A stretch of DNA of 45,345 nucleotides from a virus, in IMG/VR virus record IMGVR_UViG_3300035128_000113. One strand, 5' to 3'. The position numbers and the translations under genes are program-made. The notes below the pieces were generated by a model that worked only from the letters and a program-made list of their open reading frames with translations, was not told the DNA's origin and did not search any database. Of this stretch, positions 24,508 through 44,997 are shown one piece after another. Numbering within the stretch: the stretch's first letter is position 1; every line of letters starts with the position of its first letter.

Positions 24508-25671
24508 CTAGAGATGAATCTTTGTATAGAACCTCCCCTTTAAATTGAAGCACTTGGGATACGTAGGGCAGGTACTTACGCTTATTGCCCCACTAATTTC
24601 TCCGCCTGGCCTCATATCTCCTTCCGCGATAGGTATATTTCCGTGAAATTCTTCTGTTGGATACATATAGCTTAGGCTAGTAATCTCCGCATCTTCAATT
24701 TTGAAATCAAAAAAACTCCCACGAGAATCCGGGTCAGGTGTCCCATTGAGCATAAGTAGACCCGCGGCGTTTATCTCGGAAGACCTATAAATTGTATCGA
24801 CGCCCAACTCAAAGGTATATTTCTCCCGGTTCATCGACTCCATCTGTATTACAACCTTTGATTCCTCTGAATCAAAGACTGCTCCGCCACGAAAAATAAG
24901 CTCAATAGGCTCTATCTCTAAAACAGTAGGCTCAAGCGTAATCTCCGCCCACCCATCCGCTGTTTTGCAATATCCATCCTCACACACCTCCCTTCCCGGG
25001 TTTTCGCAGTCGGAATACTCGCCGCATTCAACACATGCTCCAGCTACACACATACGAGGGCATTCCATTACGGAGACCGCCCGACAGTCCGAACCGGAAG
25101 ATGTGCATACAGATAGGATATTCTCATTGCATACCGTTTCCCCCTCTATCCAGCCATCTACCGGAATATCCCCATCGGCGTCGGCGTCGGCGTCGGCGTC
25201 GGTATCTGTGTCAGTGTCTGTGTCTGTATCCGTGTCTGTATCCGTGTCTGTATCCGTGTCTGTATCAGTATCCCCATCGGTATCGGTATCGGTATCGGTA
25301 TCGGTATCGGTATCGATATCCGTATCCGTATCCCCATCAATATCGGCATCTGTGCCTGGATCGAAGTCTGCATCGGTATCCCCATCGGTGTCCGTGTCCG
25401 TATCCCCATCGGTATCCCCATCGGTATCGGTATCCGTATCCCCATCGGTGTCGGTGTCGGTATCGGTGTCCGTGTCCGTGTCCCCATCGGTATCCCCATC
25501 GGTATCGGTATCCGTATCCGTATCCGTATCCGTATCCGTATCCGTATCCGTATCCGTATCCCCATCGGCAGTCGAAGACATATCACCTCCATCCTCCCCA
25601 TCGGCAATATCCGACATATCCTCGGAACACGCACATAACACCATCATCATCATCACAAAATAAAGTTTCAT
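24508..25671 (-). CDS. Lipoprotein with long (Asp-Thr)n repeat and Cys-rich domain
   Basis: Start moved to MKLYF (AGGAGG RBS); signal peptide and lipobox VLCAC; about 130 aa of DT/DG repeats; disulfide-rich segment. Confidence 0.85.
   Translation of the reverse strand: MKLYFVMMMMVLCACSEDMSDIADGEDGGDMSSTADGDTDTDTDTDTDTDTDTDTDTDGDTDGDTDTDTDTDTDTDGDTDTDTDGDTDGDTDTDTDGDTDADFDPGTDADIDGDTDTDIDTDTDTDTDTDTDGDTDTDTDTDTDTDTDTDTDTDTDTDADADADADGDIPVDGWIEGETVCNENILSVCTSSGSDCRAVSVMECPRMCVAGACVECGEYSDCENPGREVCEDGYCKTADGWAEITLEPTVLEIEPIELIFRGGAVFDSEESKVVIQMESMNREKYTFELGVDTIYRSSEINAAGLLMLNGTPDPDSRGSFFDFKIEDAEITSLSYMYPTEEFHGNIPIAEGDMRPGGEISGAISVSTCPTYPKCFNLKGRFYTKIHL
25170..25568. repeat. Coding hexanucleotide microsatellite (GAYACN)n encoding DTDTDT
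   Basis: Runs of gtatcc/gtatcg/gtgtcc directly visible. Confidence 0.95.
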
Positions 25672-25729
25672 AACCCCTCCTTTCCCTAGGGGGAATCTCC
25701 CCACTAGGGTATTGGTTGCTTGGTTGTTT

Positions 25730-28503: not shown

Positions 28504-28851
28504 GACTTAAAACCATGATAACTGGTTAATTTGGCGGTAATAGTCTGCAATGTGAGCATAACTTGAAATCTTTAGTGAATATTACAGTAATATCGTATGT
28601 GTTGTCGATGATATACATGAGACATGGGTATAATATCCCAAAATATGTCGGTGAAGTGGATGTATCATCCGGTATCGGCATATCACAGTGCATATCTATG
28701 GCATATCCCCTATCCCTAGTCATTAGAGTATATTCTAATGACTACAATATCAATGTAATATGCCTACATAGGATTTCAAGACCAAACCATGTTTGTCTTG
28801 AAAGTTTATAAACTACAGTATTAGTTTAATTTATATGAATAGGGTAGGGGG

Positions 28852-29277
28852 TCAATCGGCAAGAAGATAACACCTAGAATAGTCAATACAAGCCACAGCA
28901 TCCCTAATTGTTCTAACCATAGAAGTCAAACAACTATCATAGGGAACATGCCCCAGCCTAATCTGAATATCCCTATGAACACCCTGAAGAATTTCAAGCA
29001 AGATATCTGTAACTAAAAACCAAACATAATTAGCATTCTCAAGACAGAACTTTGAAACCGTAGATAGTACTATGTCAAAAAGCCACGCATGCAATTCTCT
29101 TGTATAGGTTACACCGTATTTTAAATATAACCTAGTTATCTTAACTAAATCATAATCCAAAAGTACCTTCAATATCTTATAAACATACACTCTATCCTTG
29201 CCCAACTTACATTCAGATATATCCCATGAAGCTACAATCAAACTTTGCATGGCTTTTAAATCTGGCTTATATATCAT
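28852..29277 (-). CDS. Hypothetical protein
   Basis: GGAGG RBS before MIYKPD; no RyR motif recognisable. Confidence 0.6.
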   Translation of the reverse strand: MIYKPDLKAMQSLIVASWDISECKLGKDRVYVYKILKVLLDYDLVKITRLYLKYGVTYTRELHAWLFDIVLSTVSKFCLENANYVWFLVTDILLEILQGVHRDIQIRLGHVPYDSCLTSMVRTIRDAVACIDYSRCYLLAD

Positions 29278-29346
29278 AATTCTGCCTCCAAACAAAACAT
29301 ATCCGTGCGACTTAGCACAACCGCCTAGGCGCGCACAACCTATAAC

Positions 29347-29781
29347 CTAATGCAATGTACGGGTATCTTTATCAACACTACTATGGTGAACCACTGAAAT
29401 TTTACCCGACGCATATATTGCTTTTATCAAGGTCTCAAAAAGCTCATCCATAGCCCGTATTACGTATGGAATCTCATCGTACGGAAGTATGCAGGGATCA
29501 ACCATATTCGCCTCATCTTCTTCCTCCCCATACCTCCATCCCTCGTCAACCCTCAATTTAAGCCACTCCTCATGGCGCTTTCTCATAGAATACGTAGGGT
29601 CCTGGTCAAATCTCACCATAATATTCAAATATGAAATAAAGTCATCTTCATCAGGCTCGCAAACTAACGAGTCGGGATTCCCCATAAGAATCCATTCAAA
29701 CTTGTGCATAACCTCATGAATTATTCTTAGCACCTTTAAACTAGTTGCATCTGTCATCACAACGGCTTGTCGATCTATCAT
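29347..29781 (-). CDS. RyR-domain protein
   Basis: RHEEWLKLRVDEGWRYGEEEDEANMVDPCILPYDEIP. Confidence 0.85.
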   Translation of the reverse strand: MIDRQAVVMTDATSLKVLRIIHEVMHKFEWILMGNPDSLVCEPDEDDFISYLNIMVRFDQDPTYSMRKRHEEWLKLRVDEGWRYGEEEDEANMVDPCILPYDEIPYVIRAMDELFETLIKAIYASGKISVVHHSSVDKDTRTLH

Positions 29782-29782
29782 T

Positions 29783-30193
29783 CTATTCTCCTTTATACAG
29801 CAATGCCCTTACAGACAACTCAAATATTTTATCTATAGACCTTATGTTACCTACTGCCTGATCGTACGGCAAAATTCTTGGGCTCGTCTTCTTCTCTTCG
29901 TTATGCCTCTCACCATAGACCCATCCCTCTTTAACCTTCTTTTCAAACCATTCTTCATGTACCTCCTTCATAGATTGATTCGGTGTTTTCGCAACAATTT
30001 TAATTAACTCAACATAACCGATTAAAGACTTTAAATCAGCTTCTGACCCTGGCTCATGTCTCTCAATCTCCTCCCCATGTACTAGAAGTCTCACCTTTGA
30101 CATCAACTCCCGAAAAACATGAGCTAAGAAAAGACCCCTAGCATTTGTTACATTTAATTCATCAATCACCTTAGATGAAAACTCCTTTTCCAT
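29783..30193 (-). CDS. RyR-domain protein
   Basis: VHEEWFEKKVKEGWVYGERHNEEKKTSPRILPYDQ. Confidence 0.85.
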   Translation of the reverse strand: MEKEFSSKVIDELNVTNARGLFLAHVFRELMSKVRLLVHGEEIERHEPGSEADLKSLIGYVELIKIVAKTPNQSMKEVHEEWFEKKVKEGWVYGERHNEEKKTSPRILPYDQAVGNIRSIDKIFELSVRALLYKGE

Positions 30194-30197
30194 ATTC

Positions 30198-30593
30198 CTA
30201 TTCCCCTTTCTTGACCATAACTGCTACAGACTTCAACACTGTTTCTAGTATCTTATCCATAGACTTAACGAACGGGTCTAACTCATCATAAGGCAACATT
30301 TGCGGACTGGTTTTTTTGGCTTCATTAAATTCTTCTCCATAAACCCATCCTTCATCAATCTTATCCTTTCGAGACGCCTCGTACATGCCCCTCAAAGTTA
30401 CCGAGGGGTCCCTAATAAATTCTTTTACGAGACTTGTGTAGGCCTCATAAACTTCTGGGCTGTGTGCAGCGCCATACGGCAGGACGTCATTTCCGGTCAT
30501 CAGCCAACCGGCCCTTTGCATTATATCCGATACAACCCCCGCGAATTCCTCAAGCCTAACCTTGCGAATCTCCGTACTTTCATTGCTCTTCAT
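30198..30593 (-). CDS. RyR-domain protein
   Basis: KIDEGWVYGEEFNEAKKTSPQMLPYDELD; start moved to MKSNES (GAGGG RBS). Confidence 0.85.
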   Translation of the reverse strand: MKSNESTEIRKVRLEEFAGVVSDIMQRAGWLMTGNDVLPYGAAHSPEVYEAYTSLVKEFIRDPSVTLRGMYEASRKDKIDEGWVYGEEFNEAKKTSPQMLPYDELDPFVKSMDKILETVLKSVAVMVKKGE

Positions 30594-31146
30594 AAATACC
30601 CTCATATATTTTCATCTTAAATACCAATCTAACTATCATCTCAAAAAACAGATTAAAATTGCGTAACTTTTTATCCAAAGACTCATATGGGACTAAAAGG
30701 GCACTGACTTTATTCTTCACATCTGACTTGACCCCGAGCTTCCAGCCCATATCTAACATTTTCCGCCGATATCTTTCATGCCTATCTCTAACTCCCTCTT
30801 CGGGGTGAGCAACTATATCAGCTACATTGCTGGTATATATCGCATACCTCTCCGGGGTCAGCTCCGTATACATAGTCTCTTCGTCATCCATAATAAGACT
30901 TTCAAACAACCTCAATATCATGAAAATCTTTGAAACCACCCTTTCCTGATGTATACATCGGCCCATAATAATATTATATTCATCCGAACCCTCGGCAATC
31001 CCGTTGTCCTCCATAACCATTTCCATAAGCTTTTTAACCTTCTCCACCTCCTCAGCCGGAAGATCACTGCTTAATAACCTGAACTTAGCTCCCTTGCCCC
31101 TTAGTAGGGTATACGGGGCCCATTCGTTATTTCGCTTATCCTTCAT
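30580..31146 (-). CDS. RyR-domain protein (divergent, N-terminal extension)
   Basis: RHERYRRKMLDMGWKLGVKSDVKNKVSALLVPYESL. Confidence 0.8.
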   Translation of the reverse strand: MKDKRNNEWAPYTLLRGKGAKFRLLSSDLPAEEVEKVKKLMEMVMEDNGIAEGSDEYNIIMGRCIHQERVVSKIFMILRLFESLIMDDEETMYTELTPERYAIYTSNVADIVAHPEEGVRDRHERYRRKMLDMGWKLGVKSDVKNKVSALLVPYESLDKKLRNFNLFFEMIVRLVFKMKIYEGIYEEQ

Positions 31147-31640
31147 TTCATCTCCAACAAGATTCTGACTATCGCTTCGAAGGTCAAATAACTCGCCCTC
31201 ACAGAATACGGAAGGTCTTTAAACAAAATTAAACCCGGATGAATTTTATTTTCTATATCCAATTCATCCCCCAAGCTCCACCCGAAATCCTTCATGCCAA
31301 ATACAAACTTGTTATACAACTCCTCTATTGAAGCCTCAGGACACAAAATCATGTCCACTAAGAAACTCATGGTATTAATAAGCTCTTCTTGTCCGATATA
31401 ACTGAACTCACCTATCGGCTTCTCATCCATAGTGAGTCTTAATAATTCCAAAATCAACCTGACCTTATCCAGCTTTGAAATAACATACGTGAACTGCGCC
31501 AGCTTTTCTTCATCCTCTTCAAGGGTACTAAACCTACCCATCAAATACGGTGTATAGGCCTTGCCCTTAAGCAAAGCCGTCAACCCCTTGAACACAGAAG
31601 AACCATTACTGTTTACAAGACCCCTTGTTAAATGCTCCAT
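31143..31640 (-). CDS. RyR-domain protein (divergent, N-terminal extension)
   Basis: MKDFGWSLGDELDIENKIHPGLILFKDLP. Confidence 0.8.
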   Translation of the reverse strand: MEHLTRGLVNSNGSSVFKGLTALLKGKAYTPYLMGRFSTLEEDEEKLAQFTYVISKLDKVRLILELLRLTMDEKPIGEFSYIGQEELINTMSFLVDMILCPEASIEELYNKFVFGMKDFGWSLGDELDIENKIHPGLILFKDLPYSVRASYLTFEAIVRILLEMK

Positions 31641-32022
31641 TTTCTTCCCTTCTTTCTATCCCCTTCATTGTAAGATAATCCGACACCATTCCGGAAAACG
31701 CCTTGTCCAAGTCCAAAGCGGTTTTTGACAACTTTTCATATTCAACCAAACTGGGGTCAGTTTTTAATTTATCATCAAATGTATCTCCTAAAAACCACCC
31801 ATCGGCCAGCTGCTCATTCACCCAATCCGCATGAACTCGAGCCATATCAAGTACCCCATCTTCCAACAAATACTCCGCGTGCAACAACTTAACAAAATCT
31901 TCTTCTGAATATCTCTCCCACCTAGAGATGTAGTCTTCCCCGTCCAGCGTATTCTTGCAAACAATAACCAACTCACGTATCCCCATGAGCATGGTATCAC
32001 TCATAGCCTTAGGCTTACCCAT
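31606..32022 (-). CDS. RyR-domain protein
   Basis: VHADWVNEQLADGWFLGDTFDDKLKTDPSLVEYEKLS. Confidence 0.85.
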   Translation of the reverse strand: MGKPKAMSDTMLMGIRELVIVCKNTLDGEDYISRWERYSEEDFVKLLHAEYLLEDGVLDMARVHADWVNEQLADGWFLGDTFDDKLKTDPSLVEYEKLSKTALDLDKAFSGMVSDYLTMKGIERREENGAFNKGSCKQ

Positions 32023-32056
32023 GACTTCCTTCCTTTCTTTTTGTAAATTCTACAGA

Positions 32057-32968
32057 CTAACTCTGTATGTGATCTCCCAAGCCCACAAATGTTAAAGTTA
32101 TAGCCCGAAACAGCCTATCCCTGGCTTTAATCGTCTCTGGCAATCTGTCATATGGAACTATCGTAGGACCAATCTTATTTTCATGGTCAAACTCCTCACC
32201 GTAGGTCCACCCAGAGGCCACCAACTCTGCCATGTTCTCGGTACGTAACTCCTCATCAGTCCTGTTGAGGTCTTTCAACAAACGCAACATGTTAAGAGCA
32301 TACCCCTTAGCACAAGGCACCGTTAAGGGCGTGCTTATATACTTATTATTACCATTAAGCATTTTTGCAAACAGCCCTAAAAGAGTATGCACTCTCAATA
32401 AATAATCCACGCCCGGAACTCTCTCAACACATAGGTTATCTGGTACCAATAAAGCCCCAACTACAACAGAACCTAACTTATTTATTATATCATTCTTTTC
32501 CGTAGTCCTAACGGTCTTGAACGTGTACGGGAAACCAAACATTTCTTTAACCAATAAACCAAGAAACAAAGATCTAACCTTGGCCTTATATGGCCAACAA
32601 GAAAACGACGGCACCATATCTTCGCAAATGTCCCTAATTAGCTTCTCTGGACTACGCACTATCCCAGAGATTGCCATAAGCCCATTGCGTATAATCTCCT
32701 GACTTACATTCCTTACCTTGTCCAAACCATTCGGACCAACTTCCCTCCCAATAATATCCAATACTAAAAATATATCCTCCGTAGCCCCAATAAACTTAAT
32801 AAACCTTTCCACCGCCTCTGGCCCCTGAAGTGCTAGAAGCGGACCCCAAACCTCACCCATAAATTTACTGTCAGACACAGTGTCTACTTCCAGCGCCCTA
32901 ACATGCAACCTATATGCTGCAAGCTGAGCTGGCGTGTACTCCAACCCCACGACTTTCTTGTCGTCCAT
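32057..32968 (-). CDS. Two-module RyR-domain protein (~300 aa subfamily)
   Basis: C-terminal LVASGWTYGEEFDHENKIGPTIVPYDRLP...RD; paralogue of the two upstream genes. Confidence 0.8.
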   Translation of the reverse strand: MDDKKVVGLEYTPAQLAAYRLHVRALEVDTVSDSKFMGEVWGPLLALQGPEAVERFIKFIGATEDIFLVLDIIGREVGPNGLDKVRNVSQEIIRNGLMAISGIVRSPEKLIRDICEDMVPSFSCWPYKAKVRSLFLGLLVKEMFGFPYTFKTVRTTEKNDIINKLGSVVVGALLVPDNLCVERVPGVDYLLRVHTLLGLFAKMLNGNNKYISTPLTVPCAKGYALNMLRLLKDLNRTDEELRTENMAELVASGWTYGEEFDHENKIGPTIVPYDRLPETIKARDRLFRAITLTFVGLGDHIQS

Positions 32969-33005
32969 AATTCCCTCCTTCTATATTGTTAACTATTCTA
33001 TCGAC

Positions 33006-33926
33006 TTAAATATACAACCCGAGCTCCGCCAAGATAAACACCACAGCCTCCATTAATACCTCTCGCTGCTGCGTCTTCCGCGACATCTCAGAGAATGGCT
33101 TGACGATGTGCGTAACCTTGTTGTCTATATCAAGAACTTCCCCTGACCTCCACCCAGCACCCAATAGCCCCTCAGCTCTACGGTTATGCCTCTGCTCTAC
33201 AGAAAGCCTGAGATTTGATAGAACCTGGAGAACGTCTATCGCGTAACCAACCGCAAACCTGGGTAACAAAGGAGTGTACATATAATTAGGATTAGCATTA
33301 AATATCTTAGCCATAAGGCCCATTATGGTGTGCATTCTCAATAGAACGTCTAACCCAAGAACTCCTTGTAATGAGCCTAACTGCTGCATGATCGTAACCC
33401 CCTTCATGCGGTCCATCAAATCGCAAGCCCTCCGGCTCAACACAAGGGACTCCCGGTCTACCGACTTGCGAGGTAAATTAAACCGTTGCTTAATAAGCAA
33501 CTCAAAAAATAAATACTTCACCCGAATCTTCTCTGGCCACACAGCGAAGGCCCCCAACTCCGGACTATCCAACTCCCGAACTGATTTCTCCGGATTACTC
33601 AGAATTTCGGAAAGCATCTCTAGGGTGTACCTTACCCTTTCGTCACCCACCGGCTTCAACGGCCCCAAGTCTTCCCCCTCCACCGTCTTTTCGATGACCC
33701 TCAACAATAACATAATCAAATCCGGGCAATTAATCATGCACATAAATTGGTCACAAGCAGCACCCCCAATAGGCGAACACGCCAATTTCTTCCATATCCC
33801 TGTTATAAACCCCTGGTCGTCCAACACATTAAGAATAATCCCCTCTGAAGCCCTCCGATACTCATCCAATTGTTCCTTTGTATACTCAACTCCCAATACC
33901 TCTTCTTCATTTACGGTCGCATTCAT
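33006..33926 (-). CDS. Two-module RyR-domain protein (~300 aa subfamily)
   Basis: GAGWRSGEVLDIDNKVTHIVKPFSEMS; start moved to MNATV, whose RBS context matches that of 34887. Confidence 0.8.
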   Translation of the reverse strand: MNATVNEEEVLGVEYTKEQLDEYRRASEGIILNVLDDQGFITGIWKKLACSPIGGAACDQFMCMINCPDLIMLLLRVIEKTVEGEDLGPLKPVGDERVRYTLEMLSEILSNPEKSVRELDSPELGAFAVWPEKIRVKYLFFELLIKQRFNLPRKSVDRESLVLSRRACDLMDRMKGVTIMQQLGSLQGVLGLDVLLRMHTIMGLMAKIFNANPNYMYTPLLPRFAVGYAIDVLQVLSNLRLSVEQRHNRRAEGLLGAGWRSGEVLDIDNKVTHIVKPFSEMSRKTQQREVLMEAVVFILAELGLYI

Positions 33927-33966
33927 GGCTACGAACCTTCCTTTCTTTATAAACTTTCTCGACCTT

Positions 33967-34887
33967 CTAAAAACACTCGTAATACCCAATAATCAATAAA
34001 ACGATCGCCCACATTACCCGGTCTCGTTGCAGTGCGGCAACCGGGGCCTCCTCAAAAGGTATTAACCAGGGAGTTGTTTTACTCTCTACATCAATTCTAT
34101 TGCCTAAAGTCCACCCATCTTTAGTTAGTTCTTTAACTCTCCTAAGATACCTCTCCTCTTGCCCCCTAAGAGGGTTTTCCAAAATACGCAAAACCTCCGT
34201 TGAATATCCCACCACAAAATCCCGGGTCAATGGCTTTGGCCTCGAACTGGACACCACCCGTAAAAGCTTGGCCATCAACCATATAAGAGTATGAATACGC
34301 GCTACTACCGGAACTCCGGGGGCATCCTTAATTGAGCGATCCCTCGGCGTATTCTGTATCTGTAATAGTCGATAGAATAATAAACGCATATCCTCCGTTA
34401 CTTTTGGCTCCACCTCTATCTTTACTCTATATGGAAGCTTACACACTTCCTTAATCATTAGATCTAAAAGCAAATACCGTGCCTGCTCCCGACGGGATAA
34501 TTCATCGAAGCTTTTCCACAAGCTACTACTAATGCTTCGAACAGATTTGCCCGGGCAACTCAATATCTCGGCAGTAACAGTCATAGCATTCTTAACCGCC
34601 TCCTCACTCGGAAGCTCTAAAATTTCTAACGACTTCCATTCAACGGTTTTGCCTATGACCTCCATCATAAGTAAAACAAAATCCAACCTGCCAGTGAACT
34701 CCATATACTGATTATAAGCCTGCACCCCCTCCACCCGCTCAATAAGCATTCGCCCCAAGCTATCCATGATCTTCTTATTAAATATAAGATCTATCATGAT
34801 TCTCTCATACCTGGAGCTATATTCTTCTAACTGCCTAGGAGTTATTTCGAACTCCACTACTTCTTCTTCAACTCGGTTTGTAGTCAT
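33967..34887 (-). CDS. Two-module RyR-domain protein (~300 aa subfamily)
   Basis: TKDGWTLGNRIDVESKTTPWLIPFEEAP...RD. Confidence 0.8.
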   Translation of the reverse strand: MTTNRVEEEVVEFEITPRQLEEYSSRYERIMIDLIFNKKIMDSLGRMLIERVEGVQAYNQYMEFTGRLDFVLLMMEVIGKTVEWKSLEILELPSEEAVKNAMTVTAEILSCPGKSVRSISSSLWKSFDELSRREQARYLLLDLMIKEVCKLPYRVKIEVEPKVTEDMRLLFYRLLQIQNTPRDRSIKDAPGVPVVARIHTLIWLMAKLLRVVSSSRPKPLTRDFVVGYSTEVLRILENPLRGQEERYLRRVKELTKDGWTLGNRIDVESKTTPWLIPFEEAPVAALQRDRVMWAIVLLIIGYYECF

Positions 34888-34960
34888 GGTTACAAACCTC
34901 CTTCCTGTGTTAATTAAAGGATAATCAATTATCCTTTAAAGATTCGATGATCCCTTCTAG

Positions 34961-35179
34961 CTAGAGCCTACAGACTTCATATCCATTTACGAAGCCTCGG
35001 CGAGTAATACCTAGGTCAATCCTAACCGCACGGTCAACCCACTTTACGGCTTTTCGTAAACTGTCTGCGGACAACAAAATATCTGCCTCCAGATAATCGT
35101 GCCACCTAGACCGAGCAACTACGATAAACTTGTCATCACAACTGGGGATAATGACATAATCCCCGCAACAATAGTGCAT
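34961..35179 (-). CDS. Small hypothetical protein
   Basis: Start moved to MHYCCG (GGAGG RBS), with a promoter just upstream. Confidence 0.55.
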   Translation of the reverse strand: MHYCCGDYVIIPSCDDKFIVVARSRWHDYLEADILLSADSLRKAVKWVDRAVRIDLGITRRGFVNGYEVCRL

Positions 35180-35227
35180 TGGTTCCCTCCTTGCCTTGGT
35201 TGTTATCCGAATTAATCGAATATAATT

Positions 35228-35256
35228 ATAGTAACACGCACATAAATTTTTATCAA
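35228..35256 (-). promoter_or_regulatory. Sigma70-type promoter re-initiating transcription into the left RyR block
   Basis: TTGATA-17 nt-TACTAT with an extended TG. Confidence 0.55.
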
Positions 35257-35438
35257 ATATTATTAACTTCCATAACTCCTTAAAAATACACAATAAAATA
35301 CACAATAAAATAAACCTGCAAAACCCATAAGTCCCAAATACACGGATAACTTCCGAAAACTCCCTCAAATACATTTGCACGATAGAAAAATAAATCCTAT
35401 CATGCCCCATCACCAACCCATAACCAAGGAGATACACT

Positions 35439-36356
35439 ATGGGAACTTCTCGCCTGAACGTTTGGCTTCGTGACTACAACTGCGTGCCCCTCACCAACTG
35501 CTGGCTTCTCGACCTCGTCGTCCAGTATTGCAACGGCACCCCGCTCTACTCCGTCTTCCCCCTGCTCGAACAGCTGAAATCTCGATACGCTACCCCGGCC
35601 TCCGCCGTCGACTTGTCAAACTACCCGCTGCCCGACCAGGCCGGTCGATACATCACCATCACCACCAACACCTCCTCCCTGACCCTTAACATCACAACCA
35701 GCTGCACCACCAAAGCCGAAGTCTTCAACGCCCTCAAAGCCTACTTCACCAACGTCAATGTGAACCTCGACTTCGATAACGACCAAATCGTCCTCACAAC
35801 CCTCGATAAAGGACCGTCTCAATTCATCAATATCGATACCGACTCCGACATCCAATTCTCCACCCCCACCCCCGGCTCCGGATACGAAATCTCTACCAGA
35901 TACTACCACGGCGCCTATCGCATCAAAATCTATCCGCCCGCAGGTCAATACATCAACCACGTAGAACTCGACGTCCCCCCGGGCTGCTACCGAATCTGGG
36001 CTCGCTGCTGCCACGGAAAAAATGAAGAAACTTCAACCGTTATGCTCCCCGTCGAGTCCTGCGGTACCTGCTACTCCGTGAACCTCATCCTCCCCGAAGT
36101 GATGAACTGCTCGCAAAACGTCATCTACCCGCTTATGGATAAACTCGCGAACGACTACGTACAGGCTATCCCCGAAGTGAACGACCAAGCCCTCGTATTC
36201 CGAGGCGTCGCACTCATCGCCGGCCTAGGCCGTGAACAAATCCTCAACGAACTCGAAGAACGAAAACAAGACGCTATACTTATCAACCGTACGGACCTCG
36301 CCGAACGCGTCGATACCCTGATTAATATCGCCCAACTCCTGCCGACCTGCCTCTAA
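35439..36356 (+). CDS. Cys-rich hypothetical protein with an insert resembling a sheath domain
   Basis: AAGGAG RBS; 305 aa; the only credible plus-strand gene; stop overlaps the convergent RyR gene stop. Confidence 0.85.
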   Translation: MGTSRLNVWLRDYNCVPLTNCWLLDLVVQYCNGTPLYSVFPLLEQLKSRYATPASAVDLSNYPLPDQAGRYITITTNTSSLTLNITTSCTTKAEVFNALKAYFTNVNVNLDFDNDQIVLTTLDKGPSQFINIDTDSDIQFSTPTPGSGYEISTRYYHGAYRIKIYPPAGQYINHVELDVPPGCYRIWARCCHGKNEETSTVMLPVESCGTCYSVNLILPEVMNCSQNVIYPLMDKLANDYVQAIPEVNDQALVFRGVALIAGLGREQILNELEERKQDAILINRTDLAERVDTLINIAQLLPTCL

Positions 36357-36595
36357 GCCCCGTCCTTCTTCCGTCTCCAAATCACATCATTAAGAATATG
36401 GGCAAACACTCGATATTCAGTTTGTGCCCTTAAAGACAAATCTTTATACGGAACAATATACGGACTCTCCTTCTTGTCGAGGTCTACTACTTTACTATAC
36501 TTCCACCCACTATCCTTCATCTCTTGTACCCAGCTATCATAGGCTTCCTCAACAATACGTTCTATATCCTCACGATTGCTCACAAGCTTTTCCAT
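36353..36595 (-). CDS. Minimal RyR-domain protein
   Basis: AYDSWVQEMKDSGWKYSKVVDLDKKESPYIVPYKDLS. Confidence 0.85.
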   Translation of the reverse strand: MEKLVSNREDIERIVEEAYDSWVQEMKDSGWKYSKVVDLDKKESPYIVPYKDLSLRAQTEYRVFAHILNDVIWRRKKDGA

Positions 36596-36679
36596 AAATA
36601 ACTCCTTTGTTCTAATCCTAGAACGCAGACATCCTACTTACTGTAAATGAATTACGAAGACTTGATAACCTTGCGACCC

Positions 36680-37468
36680 TTACCCTACATCAGCACTCTC
36701 AAAACACAGCAACGCCTTTACGATGGACGTAAACAACTTGTCCTTCACCCTTTGCTCCTCCGGCAACTTCTCGTACTCCACCATACACGGATGCTCTTTC
36801 TTCTCTACATCCTTCTCCACCCCGTACTTCCAACCGTCTCGTTCCTTATCCCGTAACCAATTCTTATGACTCTCCTCGGGTGTAAGATTCGGATTAGCCA
36901 TAATAGCACTTATACCACTCTTACTCGACTTAACCTGCCAGTTCTGCGCGTTCTCCCACCTGGGCTGAGAATAATCCCCCAACGCCTCGCAAAAAAGACG
37001 ATTAACCTCGTGAACAATATGTGCGATTTCGTCTATCTCAATAACGGGTTTCATTACTAACTCCTGATTTAAATTAAAGTGTACCACCCTCCGACTAGAG
37101 AGACAGGTCCCCCTCCCTAACAACGTCCTGACTAAAACGTCAACTAACGTATCTCGTACCCTCTGCTGCGAAGGCAACCTTCTATACTCTACTATATCTG
37201 GATGCTCCTTTCTTTCCCTGTCCAATTTCATACCGTACGTCCACCCGCGCTCCTTCATGAAAGCCATCCACTCATCGTGAGCTACCTCAGAACTATACTC
37301 CGGGTTCCTTATAATATTATTAACTCCTTCCTTAGCTATCTGGACTTCCCAGTCAAGTGCACCTTCCCATGCCCGGCGCGGCCTCTCCCCTAAAGCCTCT
37401 CGATAAATACGATCAGCTTCATAAACAATATGAGCTATCTCATCCTTACTAATAATATATTCCATCAC
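36680..37468 (-). CDS. Tandem double RyR-domain protein (internal in-frame start at 37054)
   Basis: Two complete copies (AHDEW...GWTYG...EHPDIVEY..LP..Q and SHKNW...GWKYG...EHPCMVEY..LP..Q); internal AGGAG RBS. Confidence 0.9.
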   Translation of the reverse strand: MMEYIISKDEIAHIVYEADRIYREALGERPRRAWEGALDWEVQIAKEGVNNIIRNPEYSSEVAHDEWMAFMKERGWTYGMKLDRERKEHPDIVEYRRLPSQQRVRDTLVDVLVRTLLGRGTCLSSRRVVHFNLNQELVMKPVIEIDEIAHIVHEVNRLFCEALGDYSQPRWENAQNWQVKSSKSGISAIMANPNLTPEESHKNWLRDKERDGWKYGVEKDVEKKEHPCMVEYEKLPEEQRVKDKLFTSIVKALLCFESADVG

Positions 37469-37475
37469 TCCTCCA

Positions 37476-37838
37476 CTATAGTGCGCCTAACAAAGTTTTA
37501 GTTATAACCTCCGTCAACCTATACGGAACCTTCTGCTGAATTGGTAACCGGTCGTAATCAACTAAATCGGGGTGCGTCATCTTAACTACATCAAACTCCC
37601 TACCCCACTTCCAACCAGCTAATACCATCTCCCACACCCAATTACTGTGCACCTCCCTTGAAGTAATGTCCGGATTCTTCACGAAACGCTCCACCCCAAA
37701 TTTAACTCCCTTAAGCCTCCACTCCGGTGCCTCCTCCACCCTAGGCCACACAACATCCCCAAAGGAACTACCAAAAATCCTGGTGGCCTCGTAAACTATA
37801 ACCGCTATCTCATCGGTACTAATAATAGGATTCATCAC
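37476..37838 (-). CDS. RyR-domain protein
   Basis: VHSNWVWEMVLAGWKWGREFDVVKMTHPDLVDYDRLP. Confidence 0.88.
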   Translation of the reverse strand: MMNPIISTDEIAVIVYEATRIFGSSFGDVVWPRVEEAPEWRLKGVKFGVERFVKNPDITSREVHSNWVWEMVLAGWKWGREFDVVKMTHPDLVDYDRLPIQQKVPYRLTEVITKTLLGAL

Positions 37839-38053
37839 TACTCACTCTCTTCCCCTTCATACCTCCGATAGTCCTCCGGACACCTGGGATCATACACACC
37901 TCCTATGTCCCAATTCACTAAACACTCCTCACAATTCCACGGCGGCCCGTACTCACAATCAAACTCATACCCGCAATCCGTCCAAGTCGAATAACCACCA
38001 CACGTCGGTATATCCTCGGGTTCCTCATAACCAACCATCTCTACGTCAACCAT
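37838..38053 (-). CDS. Small Cys-rich acidic hypothetical protein
   Basis: CGG...DCGYEFDCEY...CEECLVN; 1-nt stop/start overlaps with both neighbours. Confidence 0.75.
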   Translation of the reverse strand: MVDVEMVGYEEPEDIPTCGGYSTWTDCGYEFDCEYGPPWNCEECLVNWDIGGVYDPRCPEDYRRYEGEESE

Positions 38054-38424
38054 TACTCATCTAGCCCTATTCCTAACAAAGTCTTAATCGTAACGCTAAT
38101 TAACCGGTCCCTCATCCGTATCCAACTAGGAAGCATGTCGTAATCCGCTAAATCCGGATGAACCTTCGCCTCCAAATCAGCCTTCTCCCCGTACTTCCAA
38201 CCCTCCTTCTTCATCTTCTCTACCCACATCCTATGTGCAACCTTCGGAGTTAATGTCGGGTGCTTGGCTATATACTTAATCCCCTCTTTAAGATTCTTAA
38301 TATTATTCTTATCCAAATATTCCCAAGCAGCTCCTACCGGCTTCCCAACTACTACACAATACATACATTCAACCTCATGGGCAATCCAAGCAATATTATC
38401 TACACTAATTTTCGGACTCATCAT
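38053..38424 (-). CDS. RyR-domain protein
   Basis: AHRMWVEKMKKEGWKYGEKADLEAKVHPDLADYDMLP; AAGGAGG RBS. Confidence 0.88.
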   Translation of the reverse strand: MMSPKISVDNIAWIAHEVECMYCVVVGKPVGAAWEYLDKNNIKNLKEGIKYIAKHPTLTPKVAHRMWVEKMKKEGWKYGEKADLEAKVHPDLADYDMLPSWIRMRDRLISVTIKTLLGIGLDE

Positions 38425-38544
38425 AACCTCCTTTATTTGGTTTATAACATAAACATTAAATCAACATAGCATACATTAAGTATCATCAAATGTAAATACT
38501 CCATATAAACATCTAATAACATTAACATAACTAGGATACTCCCA

Positions 38545-38771
38545 AACCATTCCCCCCAACACACCTAGAGAAACCTCTCCCCCCCCCGTCCCTACACATT
38601 CCCCCATCTCCCCCCATAACAACCTCTCCCCCCAATAACAACCTCTCCCCCCAACTACAGATAATTACCTCCAACCTTCCACATACTACTACCACAATAC
38701 CTCTACCACCAATTAACCAATTTAGACTGCATACCCTCCCTCAGACTGCACGCCTCCCATCACCCCCTCCC
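38545..38771. repeat. Oligo-C tract region with a ~20-bp tandem repeat (ataacaacctctcccccca x2)
   Basis: Many C5-C9 runs; almost no G on the plus strand. Confidence 0.8.
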
Positions 38772-39027
38772 GGCGAAACTGTAGGGTGGCCCACCGCAGC
38801 CAAATACCGTACCTAAAGGTTAAACTTAACCAAAGCCAATGCGCCACAGCCCCTAATTCTATTGGGGTATACGAGCCTGACATGACCGTAGCGACCAGTA
38901 GGCCAAGCTAGGCCCCCTATGAACATTGGCCTAGACCTATGATTTCTAGATTCCATGTTTGTGTGCCCATGCAGAAAGTCTTGACAAGGCATAATCCCAC
39001 GTGAGGTAGGGGGCACATAAAAAATCT

Positions 39028-39303
39028 TCATATACCCCCTATGGATAAAGGGCGATAGTGATTCACGATCATCACATACCCCCTATGAATAAAGGACGAT
39101 AAGATGTTTGAATAGAAACAATCAATCTGACTTTGAGTCAATATCCATAGTAGTATGATGGGTATACGTATCTCATATACCCCCTATGAATAAAGGACGA
39201 TATGAGGGTACAAGCATTAGCCGGTAGCGTCATTTAGAGCAATAGGGGCAGGCCCTTTAGCAGGATAGGCACGTCATATACCCCCTATAAATAAAGGGCG
39301 AAA
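39028..39303. repeat. Four ~30-bp direct repeats TCAYATACCCCCTATRRATAAAGGRCGA
   Basis: Copies start at 39028, 39072, 39173 and 39274; degenerate fifth copy near 39363. Confidence 0.9.
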
Positions 39304-39820
39304 AGCACCTTAGCAGGTATCATCCCCCCAAAGAATGTAATACATAATTGAATATTGATAGTGCATACCCCCCAGATAGGATAGGTGCGATATAATGTGG
39401 CAAACCCATCAGACAAGACATATTTCCATTGTCAAGAATAAACCAAATGAATCTCCTATTTATTTGGAACAGGGCAATACAGGGGTGGGGTAATGTAATG
39501 AATGTCAAGAACAAACCACATAGTCCGAATATTAAATAGTGGAATAGAGGGGGTAGGGAATAGGTCGAAATACGCGAGTCAAGTAAATACCTATGTCAAG
39601 TATAAACTAATAAATCGTCTAGAGAGTAGTCGAATGAGTGTCTCTCTATATATCCCCTATATAGTCTATCCCTATATGTCTCTCTAGGGGATCCCCCTCT
39701 TCAGCGCGTTTTTCCCCTCGAGTCGGAGGGGCATCCTATATGTAGGACAAGGTAGGCAAAGCCTCACCCTGTAGGCAGGGGTATGTCAGGGTAGGTATTG
39801 GGGGGTAGGGGCTTAGGGGG

Positions 39821-40165
39821 TCAATCGGCAAAATCGCGGGAATCGAAAAAAAGGCGTCCGAATTGTCCAGGGGAGCGGGCATCATATCTGTACAGAGGGT
39901 GGTCTGCATCGGGAGAAAAATCACTCGCCAGAATCTCTTGAATCTTAAAATCATTTTGATTTTTGATAATGTTATCGATCGCACGACGGACAGGGGCGCG
40001 CAAGCGTCCTTTTGGCGTCAATATATCGGGAGACAGTTCGATAATATCAGCGATGCACCCATCAGGCAGAAATTGCGTGATTTGAATTACAGTCAGGAAT
40101 GATTTGGACGATATTTCCGTTTTCGCCCAAGAAATCATTTTTCGGAAAATCTCATTTCGGGTCAT
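39821..40165 (-). CDS. Hypothetical protein
   Basis: GAGGA RBS; directly follows 40190-40672. Confidence 0.7.
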   Translation of the reverse strand: MTRNEIFRKMISWAKTEISSKSFLTVIQITQFLPDGCIADIIELSPDILTPKGRLRAPVRRAIDNIIKNQNDFKIQEILASDFSPDADHPLYRYDARSPGQFGRLFFDSRDFAD

Positions 40166-40189
40166 GGGTATCCTCTTTTGAATTTTGGT

Positions 40190-40672
40190 TTAGAACAACG
40201 AATCAAGATCGATACAGTCCAGGGCGTCTTGAATATCCGTGATTACAATTTCAAGCAATTCGTCAACCTGGTCGAAAGTAAAAAATGATTTAATTGGGGC
40301 GAGATAGGCATTGAGGGTATCGCACACGATCATAGACAGTGAAAGAGCGCAAAGTTCCGGATCGTCTAGGGGTATCGGGAGTTTGAATGTCTCATAATCC
40401 GAGCTGAACGCACGCAGTATCAATTTTTTGGTCTCTGAAATTTGCAATCCCTGGGATCCATGGGAAATGACGATTCGAGTGATATTGATCAGTTCTTGAC
40501 GAAACATCCCTCGGATTAAATTAGGGAAATTCTTCCTAATCCCCTCGGACAAAAGTGGATCTCTACGATGCACAATCGCATTTTTGATTTCATCGGCAAT
40601 CCGGTCTCGAGAAAGCAACACAGAATCCAGATCGATCAAATCTGAATCGGTCGTGATATTGATGGTCTTCAT
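40190..40672 (-). CDS. Hypothetical helical protein, paralogue of 42232-42714
   Basis: Start moved to MKTINI (AAGGAG RBS); shared DP..CA..L...N.YL.P...F.F....EL...V...I.DA pattern. Confidence 0.75.
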   Translation of the reverse strand: MKTINITTDSDLIDLDSVLLSRDRIADEIKNAIVHRRDPLLSEGIRKNFPNLIRGMFRQELINITRIVISHGSQGLQISETKKLILRAFSSDYETFKLPIPLDDPELCALSLSMIVCDTLNAYLAPIKSFFTFDQVDELLEIVITDIQDALDCIDLDSLF

Positions 40673-40708
40673 AATGATCTCCTTTGATGATTCATTAGTC
40701 ATAGTGAG

Positions 40709-40737
40709 AATATAAGGTTTCAAACAAGGGAAATCAA
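40709..40737 (-). promoter_or_regulatory. Sigma70-type promoter (diverged array-type block)
   Basis: TTGATT-17 nt-TATATT followed by an ATCATC-AAAGGAG leader. Confidence 0.55.
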
Positions 40738-40839
40738 GCCTAAGTGCCTATTATCATTGGATTTGATGACATTGGAATAGGGGTTTATCAATAAGTATGC
40801 CAACTTGACATTTAATGAGGCAGATTTTGTCAAGAAAAT

Positions 40840-40957
40840 AATGAGACACTTTTAGGCGATTTCGAAGGGAAGTTTTGGGTGTTTCCCCTATAGGGCAAAT
40901 TGGCACCCAAATCGCGTAAACCCCCGAAATCATTAGATTCCGAAAAAGTGTCTCATT
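40840..40957. repeat. Nested inverted repeats forming a long imperfect hairpin
   Basis: AATGAGACACTTTT/AAAAGTGTCTCATT enclosing GATTTCG/CGAAATC and TTTGGGTG/CACCCAAA. Confidence 0.7.
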
Positions 40958-41854
40958 TCACAACACCTATCTTTGTTATAAATTACAATACCAAGGTATT
41001 TCGGGAATTCGGCAATAATATCAATAGCCTACAAGTATTGTCAAAATAGGCAACATAGAGCACAAAATCAGCATATTTCTTCCCCGTCATTGCCCACATC
41101 CCCCCAATGACGTCAATCCCCATGTTTAGCCCAAATATCTGGAATAGTTAAGGGGTCATTTTGAGCGTTTCCTCTCGGTTCCCCCGTCCCCTTATACAAG
41201 GAATCAACAAAACAGGTCCTTAAGGTTTCCACCATTTCCCTTAGATTTCCAGATAAATCAGCCCTTGACAGTTTTCCAGTGAGTTACAGCCCAAGTGGAA
41301 TCGGTACATGTAAGACAATGTATGTATCGACATCCCCGATTAGGTAAAATCTGGAACAAATGTCAAGAGCGAAATCGAGATAATATCTGGACCTCCCGAT
41401 TCCTCAATGATTACAGGGCCTTACCCGCCCTCAGACACCGAAGTGACGCCTGACAGGAGGTGTTGATTTGGCATGTTTTGGGTACACACGAAATTGAATC
41501 AAAAAATCGAGAGGGGCATCTAGAAACAGTCTGGCAAGATTTGGACAGTATATCGGGAATATGGGTGATAAAACGAGGGAAGTAAGAGAGGGGATATGAG
41601 GTAACTGAACGAGGTAGCGTCTCAATGGACGTCTAGAGGGCATCTCGAGTGGGAGGGAATCCGGAGGGGACGGGGGGAAGGTGGTGGTAGAGACGGGGGA
41701 GAAAAGGGATATAGGAGGGTATAGAGGTTTGTTATCCTCTCTTTAGTATATATAGTTCATATGTTAATTCCCGTGTATCTCCCAAGCCCGCGTTTTTGCG
41801 CGCTTTTTGCGTTTCCCCTCCCCGTGGTCCAGGTGGCAAACTGGAGCGATAGAA

Positions 41855-41899
41855 GGGCAATCCGAGGGCAATCCGACGACAATCCGAGGGCAATATCGA
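41855..41899. repeat. 11-bp tandem repeat GGGCAATCCGA x4 (imperfect)
   Basis: Directly visible. Confidence 0.75.
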
Positions 41900-42231
41900 G
41901 GTATCCGGAACATCCCCTATGACATCGATACGAGGTCTATCTCCCTCCCCTCTTATCCCTCCTAGATATTCATTATCCCTAATTTCCCTCACCTCCCCGT
42001 TTTTGGGTGTCCATAGTCGAAAATATAGTTTTTGTGAAATTTTACAAAATTGAATCCAAAATTTGATTTATTTTATGTGCGAGTCTTATAGGCATAACGC
42101 ACGGGTCCCCCTAATAGTGGTATCCATAGCAGATATTTCGATCAATTTTTGGGGGGCATCCAATCCCGGCGCGTTTTGAAGGGTTTTTTTGAAATTGAGG
42201 GAAAGGGGGGCGAAAAAGGGGGATAGTGAGG

Positions 42232-42714: not shown

Positions 42715-42928
42715 AGTGTCTCCTTTTCGGTTGCGATGATTATCATCATCATCATCGTCTAATAATAATATGGTCATTATTAAGGCAATTGCAAGCCAAA
42801 GCCTGAAATGTTGAAATAAAAAGAGAGAAAATTAACGATTATTGTCGTGAATGCAAATTAAATCATCGGCACGTTTTGAAGGGTTTTTTTGAAATCAGGG
42901 GAAAGGGGGCAAAAAGGGGATAATTGGG

Positions 42929-43159
42929 TTATTCCGGGTCTCGCAACATCGAAACGTCAGAGATTATCTGAAGATAATCCGGGTCGGAAAAATAAGCACG
43001 AGCACGTTTCAGGGCATCCCCATAGGTCAGGTATTTCGAACAAAAATAGACATCGCGGGTTCCGTCCGGATGACGAGACAAAAAGCACCAACCTCCTCTA
43101 TGTTTCATATATTTCCCGTGAATCTTTTCGTAATCACTGATTTTGGGGTCGTTTGACAT
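42929..43159 (-). CDS. HGK-P-G-G-W family small protein, copy 1 (chimeric C-terminus)
   Basis: YEKIHGK...RGGWCF...YFC...A...A..YF; true start MSNDPK. Confidence 0.75.
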   Translation of the reverse strand: MSNDPKISDYEKIHGKYMKHRGGWCFLSRHPDGTRDVYFCSKYLTYGDALKRARAYFSDPDYLQIISDVSMLRDPE

Positions 43160-44987: not shown

Positions 44988-44997
44988 ATATTTCAAC

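Follow-up and report, generated by a model that had tools for sequence, protein, structure and literature searches.

An uncultured wetland virus, IMGVR_UViG_3300035128_000113, whose 45,345-nt sequence is the window analyzed here, contains an array of 13 minus-strand ORFs that together encode 14 RyR domains (positions 29347–38424), all in intact frames. The genes were shown to encode RyR domains, and we lean towards the reading that the phage RyR-domain family (RyDEP / RyR Tad type) has expanded in tandem in this lineage specifically, giving what is predicted to be a battery of proteins that bind or cleave immune signals with retuned pockets. A preliminary description of this sequence had reported 13 co-oriented ORFs with at least 14 such domains; all 13 were found between these positions on the minus strand, with the intact frames that had been claimed, but the run proved to be broken by three non-RyR genes (x71, m158 and p305). 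In addition, the ORF of R06 is present in frame as described, but its likely start is the ATG at 33926 and not the TTG at 33989. The features are listed below; the four letters give the residues at the ligand positions, which are H/W/H/D in the canonical pocket.

R01: 38053..38424, minus strand, 123 aa, canonical RyR domain, H/W/H/D
x71: 37838..38053, minus strand, 71 aa, acidic, four conserved Cys, not RyR
R02: 37476..37838, minus strand, 120 aa, RyR domain, H/W/H/Y (Asp replaced)
R03: 36680..37468, minus strand, 262 aa, a single chain with two complete RyR domains, each H/W/H/D
R04: 36353..36595, minus strand, 80 aa, minimal RyR core, Y/W/S/Y
p305: 35439..36356, plus strand (opposite strand within the array), 305 aa, no family match
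m158: 34961..35437, minus strand, 158 aa, hydrophobic stretch, not RyR
R05: 33967..34887, minus strand, 306-aa long form, C-terminal RyR domain Y/R/T/D
R06: 33006..33989, minus strand, long form, 306 aa from the likely start, RyR domain H/R/T/E
R07: 32057..32968, minus strand, 303-aa long form, RyR domain R/N/G/D
R08: 31606..32022, minus strand, 138 aa, RyR domain H/W/D/D
R09: 31143..31640, minus strand, 165 aa, RyR domain Y/F/H/Y
R10: 30580..31146, minus strand, 188 aa, RyR domain H/Y/S/N, start overlapping the R09 stop by 4 bases
R11: 30198..30605, minus strand, 135 aa, RyR domain Y/S/S/D
R12: 29783..30193, minus strand, 136 aa, RyR domain H/W/S/D
R13: 29347..29781, minus strand, 144 aa, RyR domain H/W/D/D
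Upstream stretch: 38425..39320, no strand assigned, about 0.9 kb, no long ORF, repeat-rich

In a pattern scan, gene overlap or a Shine-Dalgarno-like AAGGAGG was found ahead of nearly every RyR start (11/13), in agreement with the ribosome-binding sites or translational coupling previously proposed for most ORFs. R03 has GGAGGA immediately before an internal ATG, R11 overlaps R10, and x71 shares one base with R01 at one end and one with R02 at the other.

We searched each ORF with the Pfam RyR model (PF02026; gathering score, 27.4 bits). All 13 ORFs matched at E ≤ 0.14, and eight reached the gathering score: R01 (40.5 bits), R02 (35.1), R03 (80.1, two domains), R04 (31.1), R08 (30.5), R11 (31.2), R12 (36.7) and R13 (35.4). 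The five sub-threshold members (R07, 26.4; R10, 23.4; R06, 14.1; R09, 13.4; R05, 12.9) were backed by profile or fold matches. In searches against the PDB, RyR chains ranked first for the profile of R09 orthologues (A7; 6uhi, E = 1.6e-4), as did 6uhi for the C-terminal profile of R05 and R06 (A8; E = 2.5e-7). The AlphaFold model of R07 (pLDDT 84.2) aligned over residues 155–297 with Repeat12 of RyR3 (Z = 7.0–7.7), and with the Bacteroides thetaiotaomicron RyR-like protein at Z = 5.4 (rmsd 2.5 Å over 68 residues, 34% identity). With phmmer, R01 matched PDB 35tm_A, a 139-aa two-chain 'RyR domain-containing protein', at E = 6e-6, residues 53–107 falling ungapped onto residues 65–119 of the chain, and R03 aligned at 42.8% identity (E = 3e-27) with the region of Pectobacterium phage vB_PatP_CB1 (NC_048653) that holds the RyR Tad gene. 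The motif H..W...GW.YG...K.HP...PY..L...D was present with variable substitutions, as originally noted. A Pfam scan of the 13 RyR ORFs showed no Acb4-like domain.

An RyR array of this size is exceptional. Among 77 other RyR-bearing IMG/VR records, 76 had one Pfam match and one had two. Every one of the 29 other records that were at least 90% complete had a single match, and each of the other 78 RyR loci had one RyR ORF within ±10 kb. Among the 50,697 isolated-phage records of INPHARED, RyR matches occurred in 296 records at 298 places.

According to two 2026 preprints, His, Trp, His and Asp residues of phage RyR proteins hold 2'/3'-cADPR, which is then sequestered or cut at the ribose–ribose bond (PMC13232231; 10.64898/2026.06.04.730250). 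These residues are given as H75/W78/H100/D117 in RyDEP (PMC13232231) and H129/W132/H154/D171 in RyR Tad (10.64898/2026.06.04.730250), and the spacings of the corresponding columns here (3, 25 and 42 residues) are the same as in both proteins. The full tetrad was kept in only three of the 14 domains, namely R01 and both halves of R03. The 14 domains display 11 distinct tetrads, and the 11 non-canonical domains alone display 10 combinations, which bears out the earlier remark that the domains diverge strongly and replace the conserved H, W, HP and terminal D in differing combinations. By comparison, H/W/H/D was found in 68 of 72 distinct sequences of single-copy viral RyR domains, although the His invariance in this sample arises partly by construction because the seeding pattern contained 'HP'.

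The altered residues are stable among relatives. Ten of the 11 non-canonical domains have the same tetrad in all relatives that possess the gene: in four of four genomes for R05, R06, R08, R09, R10, R11, R12 and R13, and in all three genomes carrying R02. The sole array member whose pocket set differs is R07, with RNGD in the window, HRSD in the relatives G001 and G052, and RNSD in G053; its identity to the G001 orthologue is only 56%. We also computed dN/dS values, which ranged from 0.10 to 0.66 in all 12 RyR orthologue pairs against G001 and from 0.12 to 0.63 in all 13 pairs against G053, compared with 0.04–0.10 for four structural genes. R01 evolved fastest (0.66 and 0.63, respectively), and R05 had values of 0.10 and 0.16. 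These results show that all RyR paralogues are held by purifying selection; with their intact frames and conserved tetrads, the copies are selected and not decayed, as had been suspected.

These data bear directly on the possibility that the array is a dosage 'gene accordion', in which amplified copies are now redundant and drift to loss. Gene number does vary: the array occurs in three close relatives with 12 genes, 14 genes or, in a fragment, 9 (12 in G001, 13 in the window and 14 in G053), and it was shown to be confined to one small virus lineage. R04 is missing in G001, which has about 28 bases at that point instead, and is present in G053 in a longer form beside one additional RyR gene. 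Because the join lacking R04 (36356 to 36611) appeared in contigs from two of the four runs compared, this member is a presence/absence polymorphism within natural populations. However, the paralogues must be old, since they are only 12–42% identical to one another (neighbors being the most alike, at 28–42%), their frames are intact throughout, dN/dS is below 1 in two independent comparisons, and the altered pocket residues are conserved among genomes whose corresponding proteins differ by 10–40%. The accordion reading is largely refuted by these selection data, and we consider it very improbable.

A more serious alternative, though still an unlikely one, is that only R01–R03 act as sponges or enzymes, and that the ten divergent domains have moved past nucleotide binding and reuse the RyR scaffold against host proteins (TIR enzymes, effectors or other defense proteins) or non-immune small molecules. 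In a tree, these ten domains formed their own long-branch clade (SH-aLRT 97), separate from every one of the 72 viral RyR domains sampled. The phosphate-binding His is absent in 9 of the 14 domains, the Trp position lacks an aromatic residue in 4, and contact residues have become Arg, Asn, Ser, Gly or Thr in R05, R06, R07 and R11. Moreover, R05–R07, of which R06 is paralogous to the other two along its whole length, have gained an N-terminal domain of about 180 aa, a helical orphan that lies ahead of the RyR domain and had no match elsewhere among 1.84 billion representatives. The divergent short forms likewise had no homologue outside the lineage (14/14 matches were orthologues). On the other hand, the structural core (GW.YG, K, P and Y/F) is invariant and the overall pocket architecture is retained, the catalytic pair of His and Asp is kept together in 6 of the 14 domains and Trp in 8, and the substitutions coincide exactly with the ligand positions, with a fixed set in each paralogue, a pattern that has the look of pocket retuning.

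Under the favored reading of a battery that binds or cleaves signals, the canonical upstream block (R01 and both halves of R03, with R02 deviating only in Asp) would likely handle 2'/3'-cADPR after infection, and the fusion in R03 would build a two-pocket module in a single chain. The ten other domains, in which one to four contact residues are replaced, would lose canonical cADPR binding and are predicted to have pockets retuned for other signals, either derived from NAD or containing adenine. Since most copies are altered in ligand-holding residues, the array is likely aimed at several signals; the Thoeris systems are described as comprising types I–XI, with signals that include at least 3'cADPR, 2'cADPR, canonical cADPR and N7-cADPR (10.64898/2025.12.03.692087; PMC13243611), and also His-ADPR. 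Because all four ligand residues survive in so few domains, the panel of decoys tuned to different messengers, as initially proposed, is a prediction where the 11 non-canonical domains are concerned, and these may instead bind something else, or proteins. The RyR Tad preprint reports that W132A abolished activity and that paired mutants bound approximately 100-fold more weakly (10.64898/2026.06.04.730250). Canonical residues are also no guarantee of activity, because two of the eight RyDEP homologues tested are reported not to have bound cADPR, and only one was an enzyme (PMC13232231).

The non-RyR genes x71, p305 and m158 had no Pfam or PHROG match. Homologues of x71 (62% identity) adjoin a single RyR gene in the distant relatives L090 and L095, and in more distant relatives that share x71 and p305, a single canonical RyR gene adjoins x71. 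The dN/dS values of x71 were 0.22 against G001 and 0.15 against G053. The p305 protein is 98% and 93% identical to those of G001 and G053 (dN/dS 0.13 and 0.16), has homologues at 47–49% identity in three more sediment contigs, and yielded weak matches only in the Atlas search; m158 is 93% identical to its G001 orthologue (dN/dS 0.11). The upstream stretch, which is about 91% identical in G001, contains C-rich repeats (38540–38633) and a 37-nt repeat that occurs four times (39019–39301), and GC skew switches sign near 39 kb. It is possibly a control region for the array, and scans for consensus promoters and terminators gave counts not above those of shuffled sequence (25 versus 27.9 expected, and 8 versus 10.3). 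The array shares its strand with terminase and lies upstream of it, behind this repeat-rich non-coding stretch, and from this position it may be expressed before the late genes.

It is also conceivable, but improbable, that the proteins are sensors or buffers of adenine nucleotides (ATP, ADP or NAD metabolites) for virus metabolism or regulation and not for counter-defense. Animal Repeat12 binds ATP, ADP and AMP-PCP (PDB 6uhh, 9l90, 9l9b; 10.64898/2026.06.04.730250), and RyDEP is described as supplying ADPR for NAD+ resynthesis (PMC13232231). Nevertheless, both experimentally studied phage members serve immune evasion according to their preprints (PMC13232231; 10.64898/2026.06.04.730250), and a metabolic role leaves unexplained the 11 pocket signatures, the divergence faster than that of neighboring genes and the gain and loss of members in close relatives. 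In a marker search of the complete G001 genome, Tad2 (PF11195) and the NAD-salvage markers NAPRTase (PF04095) and Pribosyltran_N (PF13793) were all absent. The absence also counts against the battery, as the three are markers of other NAD-related counter-defense.

The battery that we favor can be compared with several known systems. The preliminary description held stand-alone phage RyR proteins to be of unknown function; this is outdated, because a sponge or cleavage role has been shown for single-copy members. RyDEP is presented as acting on 2'/3'-cADPR as a glycosidase or as a sponge (PMC13232231), and RyR Tad as a sponge for 1''-3' gcADPR with a Kd of 43 nM (10.64898/2026.06.04.730250). 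Both preprints describe dimerization via helices α1 and α4 and blockage of Thoeris effectors by sequestration or cleavage. The idea that stand-alone RyR proteins of phages sponge up cADPR-type signals is thus supported for single-copy proteins but is no longer new, being now largely in print for single RyR genes.

RyDEP (Mycobacterium phage DyoEdafos gp78), which is probably the 35tm_A chain matched by R01, resembles the array members in being a stand-alone RyR/R12-type domain of about 120–140 aa, and it shares the H/W/H/D positions and spacing with R01 and both halves of R03. However, it is one gene inside a NARP1 NAD+ operon, whereas 13 genes stand in a row here, the marker search of the complete G001 genome found no NARP1 markers, 11 of the 14 domains miss part of the ligand set, and the activity of the array is only predicted. 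RyR Tad (vB_PatP_CB1 gp68) has a C-terminal RyR domain behind an unrelated N-terminal domain, the layout also seen in R05–R07, but the N-terminal domains are not related to each other (β-sheet in gp68, a helical orphan here); it is a single gene in an anti-signaling hotspot of N4-like phages, whereas the present 9-kb array lies in a myovirus-type genome. Repeat12 of animal RyR (human RyR3 848–1055; PDB 6uhb, 9l90), a module that binds nucleotides and drugs, gave the best match in both sequence and fold and has two tandem repeats per chain, as in R03, but it sits in a calcium channel of 5,000 residues and is no free protein, and nothing channel-like is found here. The B. thetaiotaomicron RyR-like protein (PDB 3nrt, 6uag) is a free single repeat of about 100 aa that dimerizes, and R07's C-terminal domain is 28–34% identical to it in structural alignments; unlike the array, it is cellular and single-copy. 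Tad1, Tad2, Acb2 and Acb4 are small proteins with which phages sequester immune nucleotides. They follow the same proposed logic and cluster in variable regions, but their folds are unrelated to RyR, and whereas known anti-defense hotspots mix families, here one family has been multiplied 13 times.

PHROG matches placed the window within the genome of a tailed, myovirus-type virus, and the genes to which the text refers are as follows.

7431–10271, minus strand: tape measure
11823–14291, minus strand: tail sheath
17050–18012, minus strand: major head protein
21687–24254, minus strand: large terminase
Minus strand: portal gene
Minus strand: baseplate genes
29347–38424, minus strand: 13 RyR-type ORFs, R01–R13
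35439–36356, plus strand: p305, a non-RyR gene within the minus-strand array
37838–38053: x71, a non-RyR gene of 71 aa with four conserved cysteines

R01–R13 are numbered in transcription order, from 38424 down to 29347, and lie upstream of the terminase gene on the same strand; an AAGGAGG-like element, or an overlap with the preceding gene, was found at most of their starts. Three genes that interrupt the array (x71, m158 and p305) matched no Pfam or PHROG family, and in relatives they are conserved and under purifying selection. Even in distant relatives with a single RyR gene, x71 adjoins that gene (L090, 1851–2084; L095, 3022–3324), and the two may possibly be functionally linked. The well-conserved p305 has homologues of 47–49% identity in other sediment contigs, and its Atlas leads were all below threshold. 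The m158 orthologue in G053, a metagenome-assembled genome (MAG) with related contigs, comprises two shorter open frames of 96 and 81 aa (L094, 6836–7420), and the gene may be split there.

Several other features of the window were recorded. The large terminase ORF encodes 855 aa, of which residues 45–555 alone matched isolated-phage terminases (best 36%, Bacillus phage BCD7) and the C-terminal 300 aa remained unmatched. Approximately 56 copies of a hexanucleotide (GTATCC, plus strand) occupy positions 25175–25561 inside a minus-strand ORF (24508–25704); this run keeps several frames open and would encode a dipeptide repeat. Additional matches of the window to G053 contigs C77 and C16 were spurious and corresponded to this hexanucleotide. 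Just upstream of the array, where long ORFs are absent, we found a 37-base repeat in four copies (39019–39301; spacings of 44, 101 and 101) together with two C-rich repeats of 45 bases (38540–38633), and this stretch is a possible control region or origin. The sign of the GC skew flips near 39 kb. Positions 42700–45345 hold at least seven repeat units of approximately 300–440 bases, each containing a conserved element, 43 bases long, with the appearance of a sigma-70-like promoter when read on the minus strand (TTGCAA, 18 bases, TATTAT). The arrangement, which is repeated in the related IMG/VR virus record G001 as well, resembles a run of small, early transcription units. In scans for promoter and terminator consensus sequences, the counts did not exceed those of shuffled sequence, and neither tRNA genes nor Rfam matches were detected.

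The preliminary description had assigned all 13 ORFs to the RyR family, and the profile searches confirmed this assignment for eight of them and, with a fold match, supported it for the other five. The Pfam RyR model (PF02026) matched 13/13 ORFs at E ≤ 0.14, and its gathering score of 27.4 bits was reached by eight of them: R01, R02, R03 (with two domains, R03a and R03b), R04, R08, R11, R12 and R13. R05, R06, R07, R09 and R10 scored 12.9–26.4 bits, below that threshold, and the first four of these were checked by routes independent of other array members. When profiles were compared with the PDB, RyR chains ranked first for the R09 orthologues (E 1.6e-4) and for the C-terminal part of R05/R06 (E 2.5e-7). 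R07, the sole ORF tested for the helical RyR fold with its central hairpin, gave an AlphaFold model with pLDDT 84.2 and pTM 0.86, in which residues 155–297 matched RyR3 Repeat12 at Z 7.0–7.7 (6uhi: Z 7.7, rmsd 4.3 Å, 123 aligned; 9l90_C: Z 7.0) and a free-standing RyR-like protein from B. thetaiotaomicron matched at Z 5.4 (4n05_D: rmsd 2.5 Å, 68 aligned, 34% identity), values that are moderate for helical proteins. The membership of R10 is based on its Pfam match (E 7e-5) and on paralogy.

The long forms R05–R07 carry an N-terminal domain before the C-terminal RyR domain. Aligned with the RyR profile by hhalign, its 180 aa gave 94% and E 1.3e-7 in an alignment that lacked the central hairpin, and it might be a degenerate first RyR repeat; we did not count it as a domain. 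The N-terminal half of the full R07 model best matched cyclin boxes (Z 5.3–5.5). Modelled alone (pLDDT 71.5), the domain had no Foldseek match at E ≤ 0.001, and a wide VIA fold search returned cyclin and sigma-factor helices (Z ≤ 6.1), with no RyR chain among the best 50 matches listed. An exhaustive profile search with this domain gave eight matches at E ≤ 0.001; three were real, namely its own three orthologue clusters, and the others, short and in several stretches, were taken as noise.

Related viruses revealed both conservation and turnover of the array. G001, a complete record of 109,495 bases with terminal repeats, is collinear with the window at approximately 91% identity and contains 12 array genes with 13 domains, with approximately 28 bases in place of R04; a further record, G052, is a 16.9-kb fragment with R05–R13. 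In G053, a 12.3-kb contig carries 14 array genes (15 domains): R04 is longer there, an additional canonical RyR gene shares its slot, and R01 is only 45–55% identical. Contigs from two of four wetland metagenome runs lack R04, with position 36356 joined to 36611, so the R04 indel is polymorphic in nature. In the public wetland assemblies (runs X3–X6), positions 28800–39400 were recovered in pieces of 0.4–3 kb, and the same runs contain records of 50–70 kb; such fragmentary assembly of the array would be expected from the coexistence of several array variants.

The preliminary description had also judged that the copies looked selected rather than decayed, and the dN/dS values agree with this: 0.10–0.66 for 12 orthologue pairs between the window and G001, and 0.12–0.63 for 13 pairs between the window and G053, with R01 the fastest in both comparisons. 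The corresponding range for four structural genes was 0.04–0.10. The array copies are therefore functional, yet under weaker constraint than the virion genes.

Array paralogues are 12–42% identical, with the highest values between neighbours. In a tree that also included 72 viral RyR domains from outside the array, R01–R03 formed a clade (SH-aLRT 95) among canonical proteins, and the remaining ten domains formed a long-branch clade (SH-aLRT 97). The R01–R03 and ten-member clades may have a single origin, and long-branch attraction is possible in this tree. Searches outside the lineage found no relatives of the divergent short forms (small RyR ORFs), for which 14/14 matches were orthologues, or of the long forms (3/3). 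Distant viruses with p305 (47–49% identical) and x71 (62%) carry one canonical RyR gene adjoining x71; this arrangement suggests that the array may have grown from a pair consisting of x71 and a single RyR gene.

The expectation that phages carry about one RyR protein was upheld on a larger scale. A tblastn search with R03 against 50,697 isolated-phage records found 298 places in 296 records, and each of the 60 matches listed was one place of approximately 310–390 bases, equal to one domain. A near-identity DNA search with the array found no match in isolated phages. An IMG/VR search seeded with four canonical domains yielded 78 loci; in Pfam scans of whole records the close relative had 12 matches, 76 other records had one and one record had two, and among the other records at least 90% complete, 29/29 had one match, these rarity counts being samples and not a census. 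With an HMM built from the 14 array domains, exactly one RyR ORF was found in 78/78 other loci. The main text of the RyDEP preprint (PMC13232231) contains neither 'copies' nor 'paralog', and a literature search on RyDEP, RyR Tad, phage RyR domains and paralogs found no description of such an array. These results show an exceptional, lineage-specific and selected expansion.

The bin G053, a 3.8-Mb MAG titled 'uncultured archaeon', includes contigs from this virus, with 97% identity in the major head protein, and from another, more distantly related virus that has x71 and one RyR gene (contigs L093, L094 and L095, equal to C7, C91 and C80). The MAG contains the archaeal ribosomal protein L31e and lacks the bacterial L27, and the virus contigs in it could be either a mis-binning or a hint of the host. 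No spacer-like short matches to the MAG were found with window positions 1–40000, the part preceding 40001–45345, and the array was absent from 40 relatives of the MAG. Binning is in itself weak evidence, the spacer comparison was negative over the range given, and the repeated promoter elements of the window are sigma-70-like; no host was assigned. In G001, no Tad2, NAPRTase or PRPP-synthetase-like genes were found.

Two preprints provide a reference for the ligand pocket, and the recognition of phage RyR proteins as Thoeris inhibitors dates only from mid-2026 and from single genes (PMC13232231; 10.64898/2026.06.04.730250, both as far as their available text goes). RyDEP of mycobacteriophage DyoEdafos is described there as cleaving 2'/3'-cADPR via H75 and D117, with W78 stacking on adenine and H100 at the phosphates; of eight homologues, six bind the signals and two serve in vivo as sponges in the nanomolar range (PMC13232231). 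The second protein, RyR Tad from Pectobacterium phage CB1, is described as a sponge for 1''-3' gcADPR (Kd 43 nM) acting via H129/W132, K147/H154 and K170/D171, with activity lost in W132A (10.64898/2026.06.04.730250). In the array, the columns for H, W, H and D have exactly the spacing found in RyDEP (H75/W78/H100/D117) and RyR Tad (H129/W132/H154/D171), with offsets of 3, 25 and 42 relative to the initial His. R01 also gave an ungapped alignment with a PDB chain, probably that of RyDEP.

Residues at the four ligand-contact columns of the array domains (canonical set H/W/H/D)
R01, R03a, R03b: HWHD
R02: HWHY
R04: YWSY
R05: YRTD
R06: HRTE
R07: RNGD
R08: HWDD
R09: YFHY
R10: HYSN
R11: YSSD
R12: HWSD
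R13: HWDD

The full set was found in 3/14 domains and was incomplete in the other 11, which showed 10 further combinations and should not be classed as canonical RyDEP-type binders. The His and Asp pair of glycosidase type was present together in 6/14 domains (R01, R03a, R03b, R08, R12 and R13); its presence does not predict catalysis, because the available text of PMC13232231 includes homologues that have the conserved residues and do not cleave. Among viral RyR domains outside the array, 68/72 distinct sequences had H/W/H/D, a sample found with four canonical domains as query and thus biased towards canonical proteins, and in which the His of HP was partly selected for by one seed pattern. 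Each non-canonical tetrad except that of R07 is unchanged across all relatives in which the gene is present, in proteins that differ by 10–40%. This pattern fits retuned pockets maintained by selection, and not decay.

Homology makes it reasonable to infer that cADPR-type Thoeris signals are the target of the canonical members. We hypothesize that the ten divergent domains read other signals; the main rival is that these domains have taken up other partners. A battery with several targets is plausible because the TIR-derived signals now known are diverse, according to the available text of two reports (10.64898/2025.12.03.692087; PMC13243611). More tentatively, and with some doubt on our part, the array could be a natural specificity library: every paralogue, with its reshaped pocket, would sequester or cut an immune nucleotide of its own (canonical cADPR, N7-cADPR, His-ADPR, other TIR products and perhaps cyclic oligonucleotides), and a single virus would in this way disarm many signalling defences at once. 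If this were true, the 11 conserved pocket signatures would be a ready-made code for nucleotide reading by the RyR fold, including that of animal ryanodine receptors. One fold multiplied 13 times in one virus offers a compact set for studying the signals readable beyond 2'/3'-cADPR, the specificity code and the immune pressure from the host; the set is informative because each copy's own altered pocket stays under selection and genes are gained and lost between close relatives.

The preliminary description mentioned possible fusions of phage RyR domains with Acb4-like domains, and no Acb4-like domain was seen in the 13 ORFs. RyDEP and RyR Tad form homodimers via helices α1 and α4. R03 carries both of its domains on a single chain. 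Animal RyR Repeat12 likewise has two tandem repeats per polypeptide, a layout that R03 alone shares among the array proteins (two stretches matched by Pfam, at 80.1 bits); however, Repeat12 is embedded in a calcium-release channel, and R01–R13 are all free proteins of 80–306 aa. The array thereby displays a route from a free dimer, putatively represented by the short forms, to the fused two-repeat module of R03, which is the domain layout of the animal receptor.
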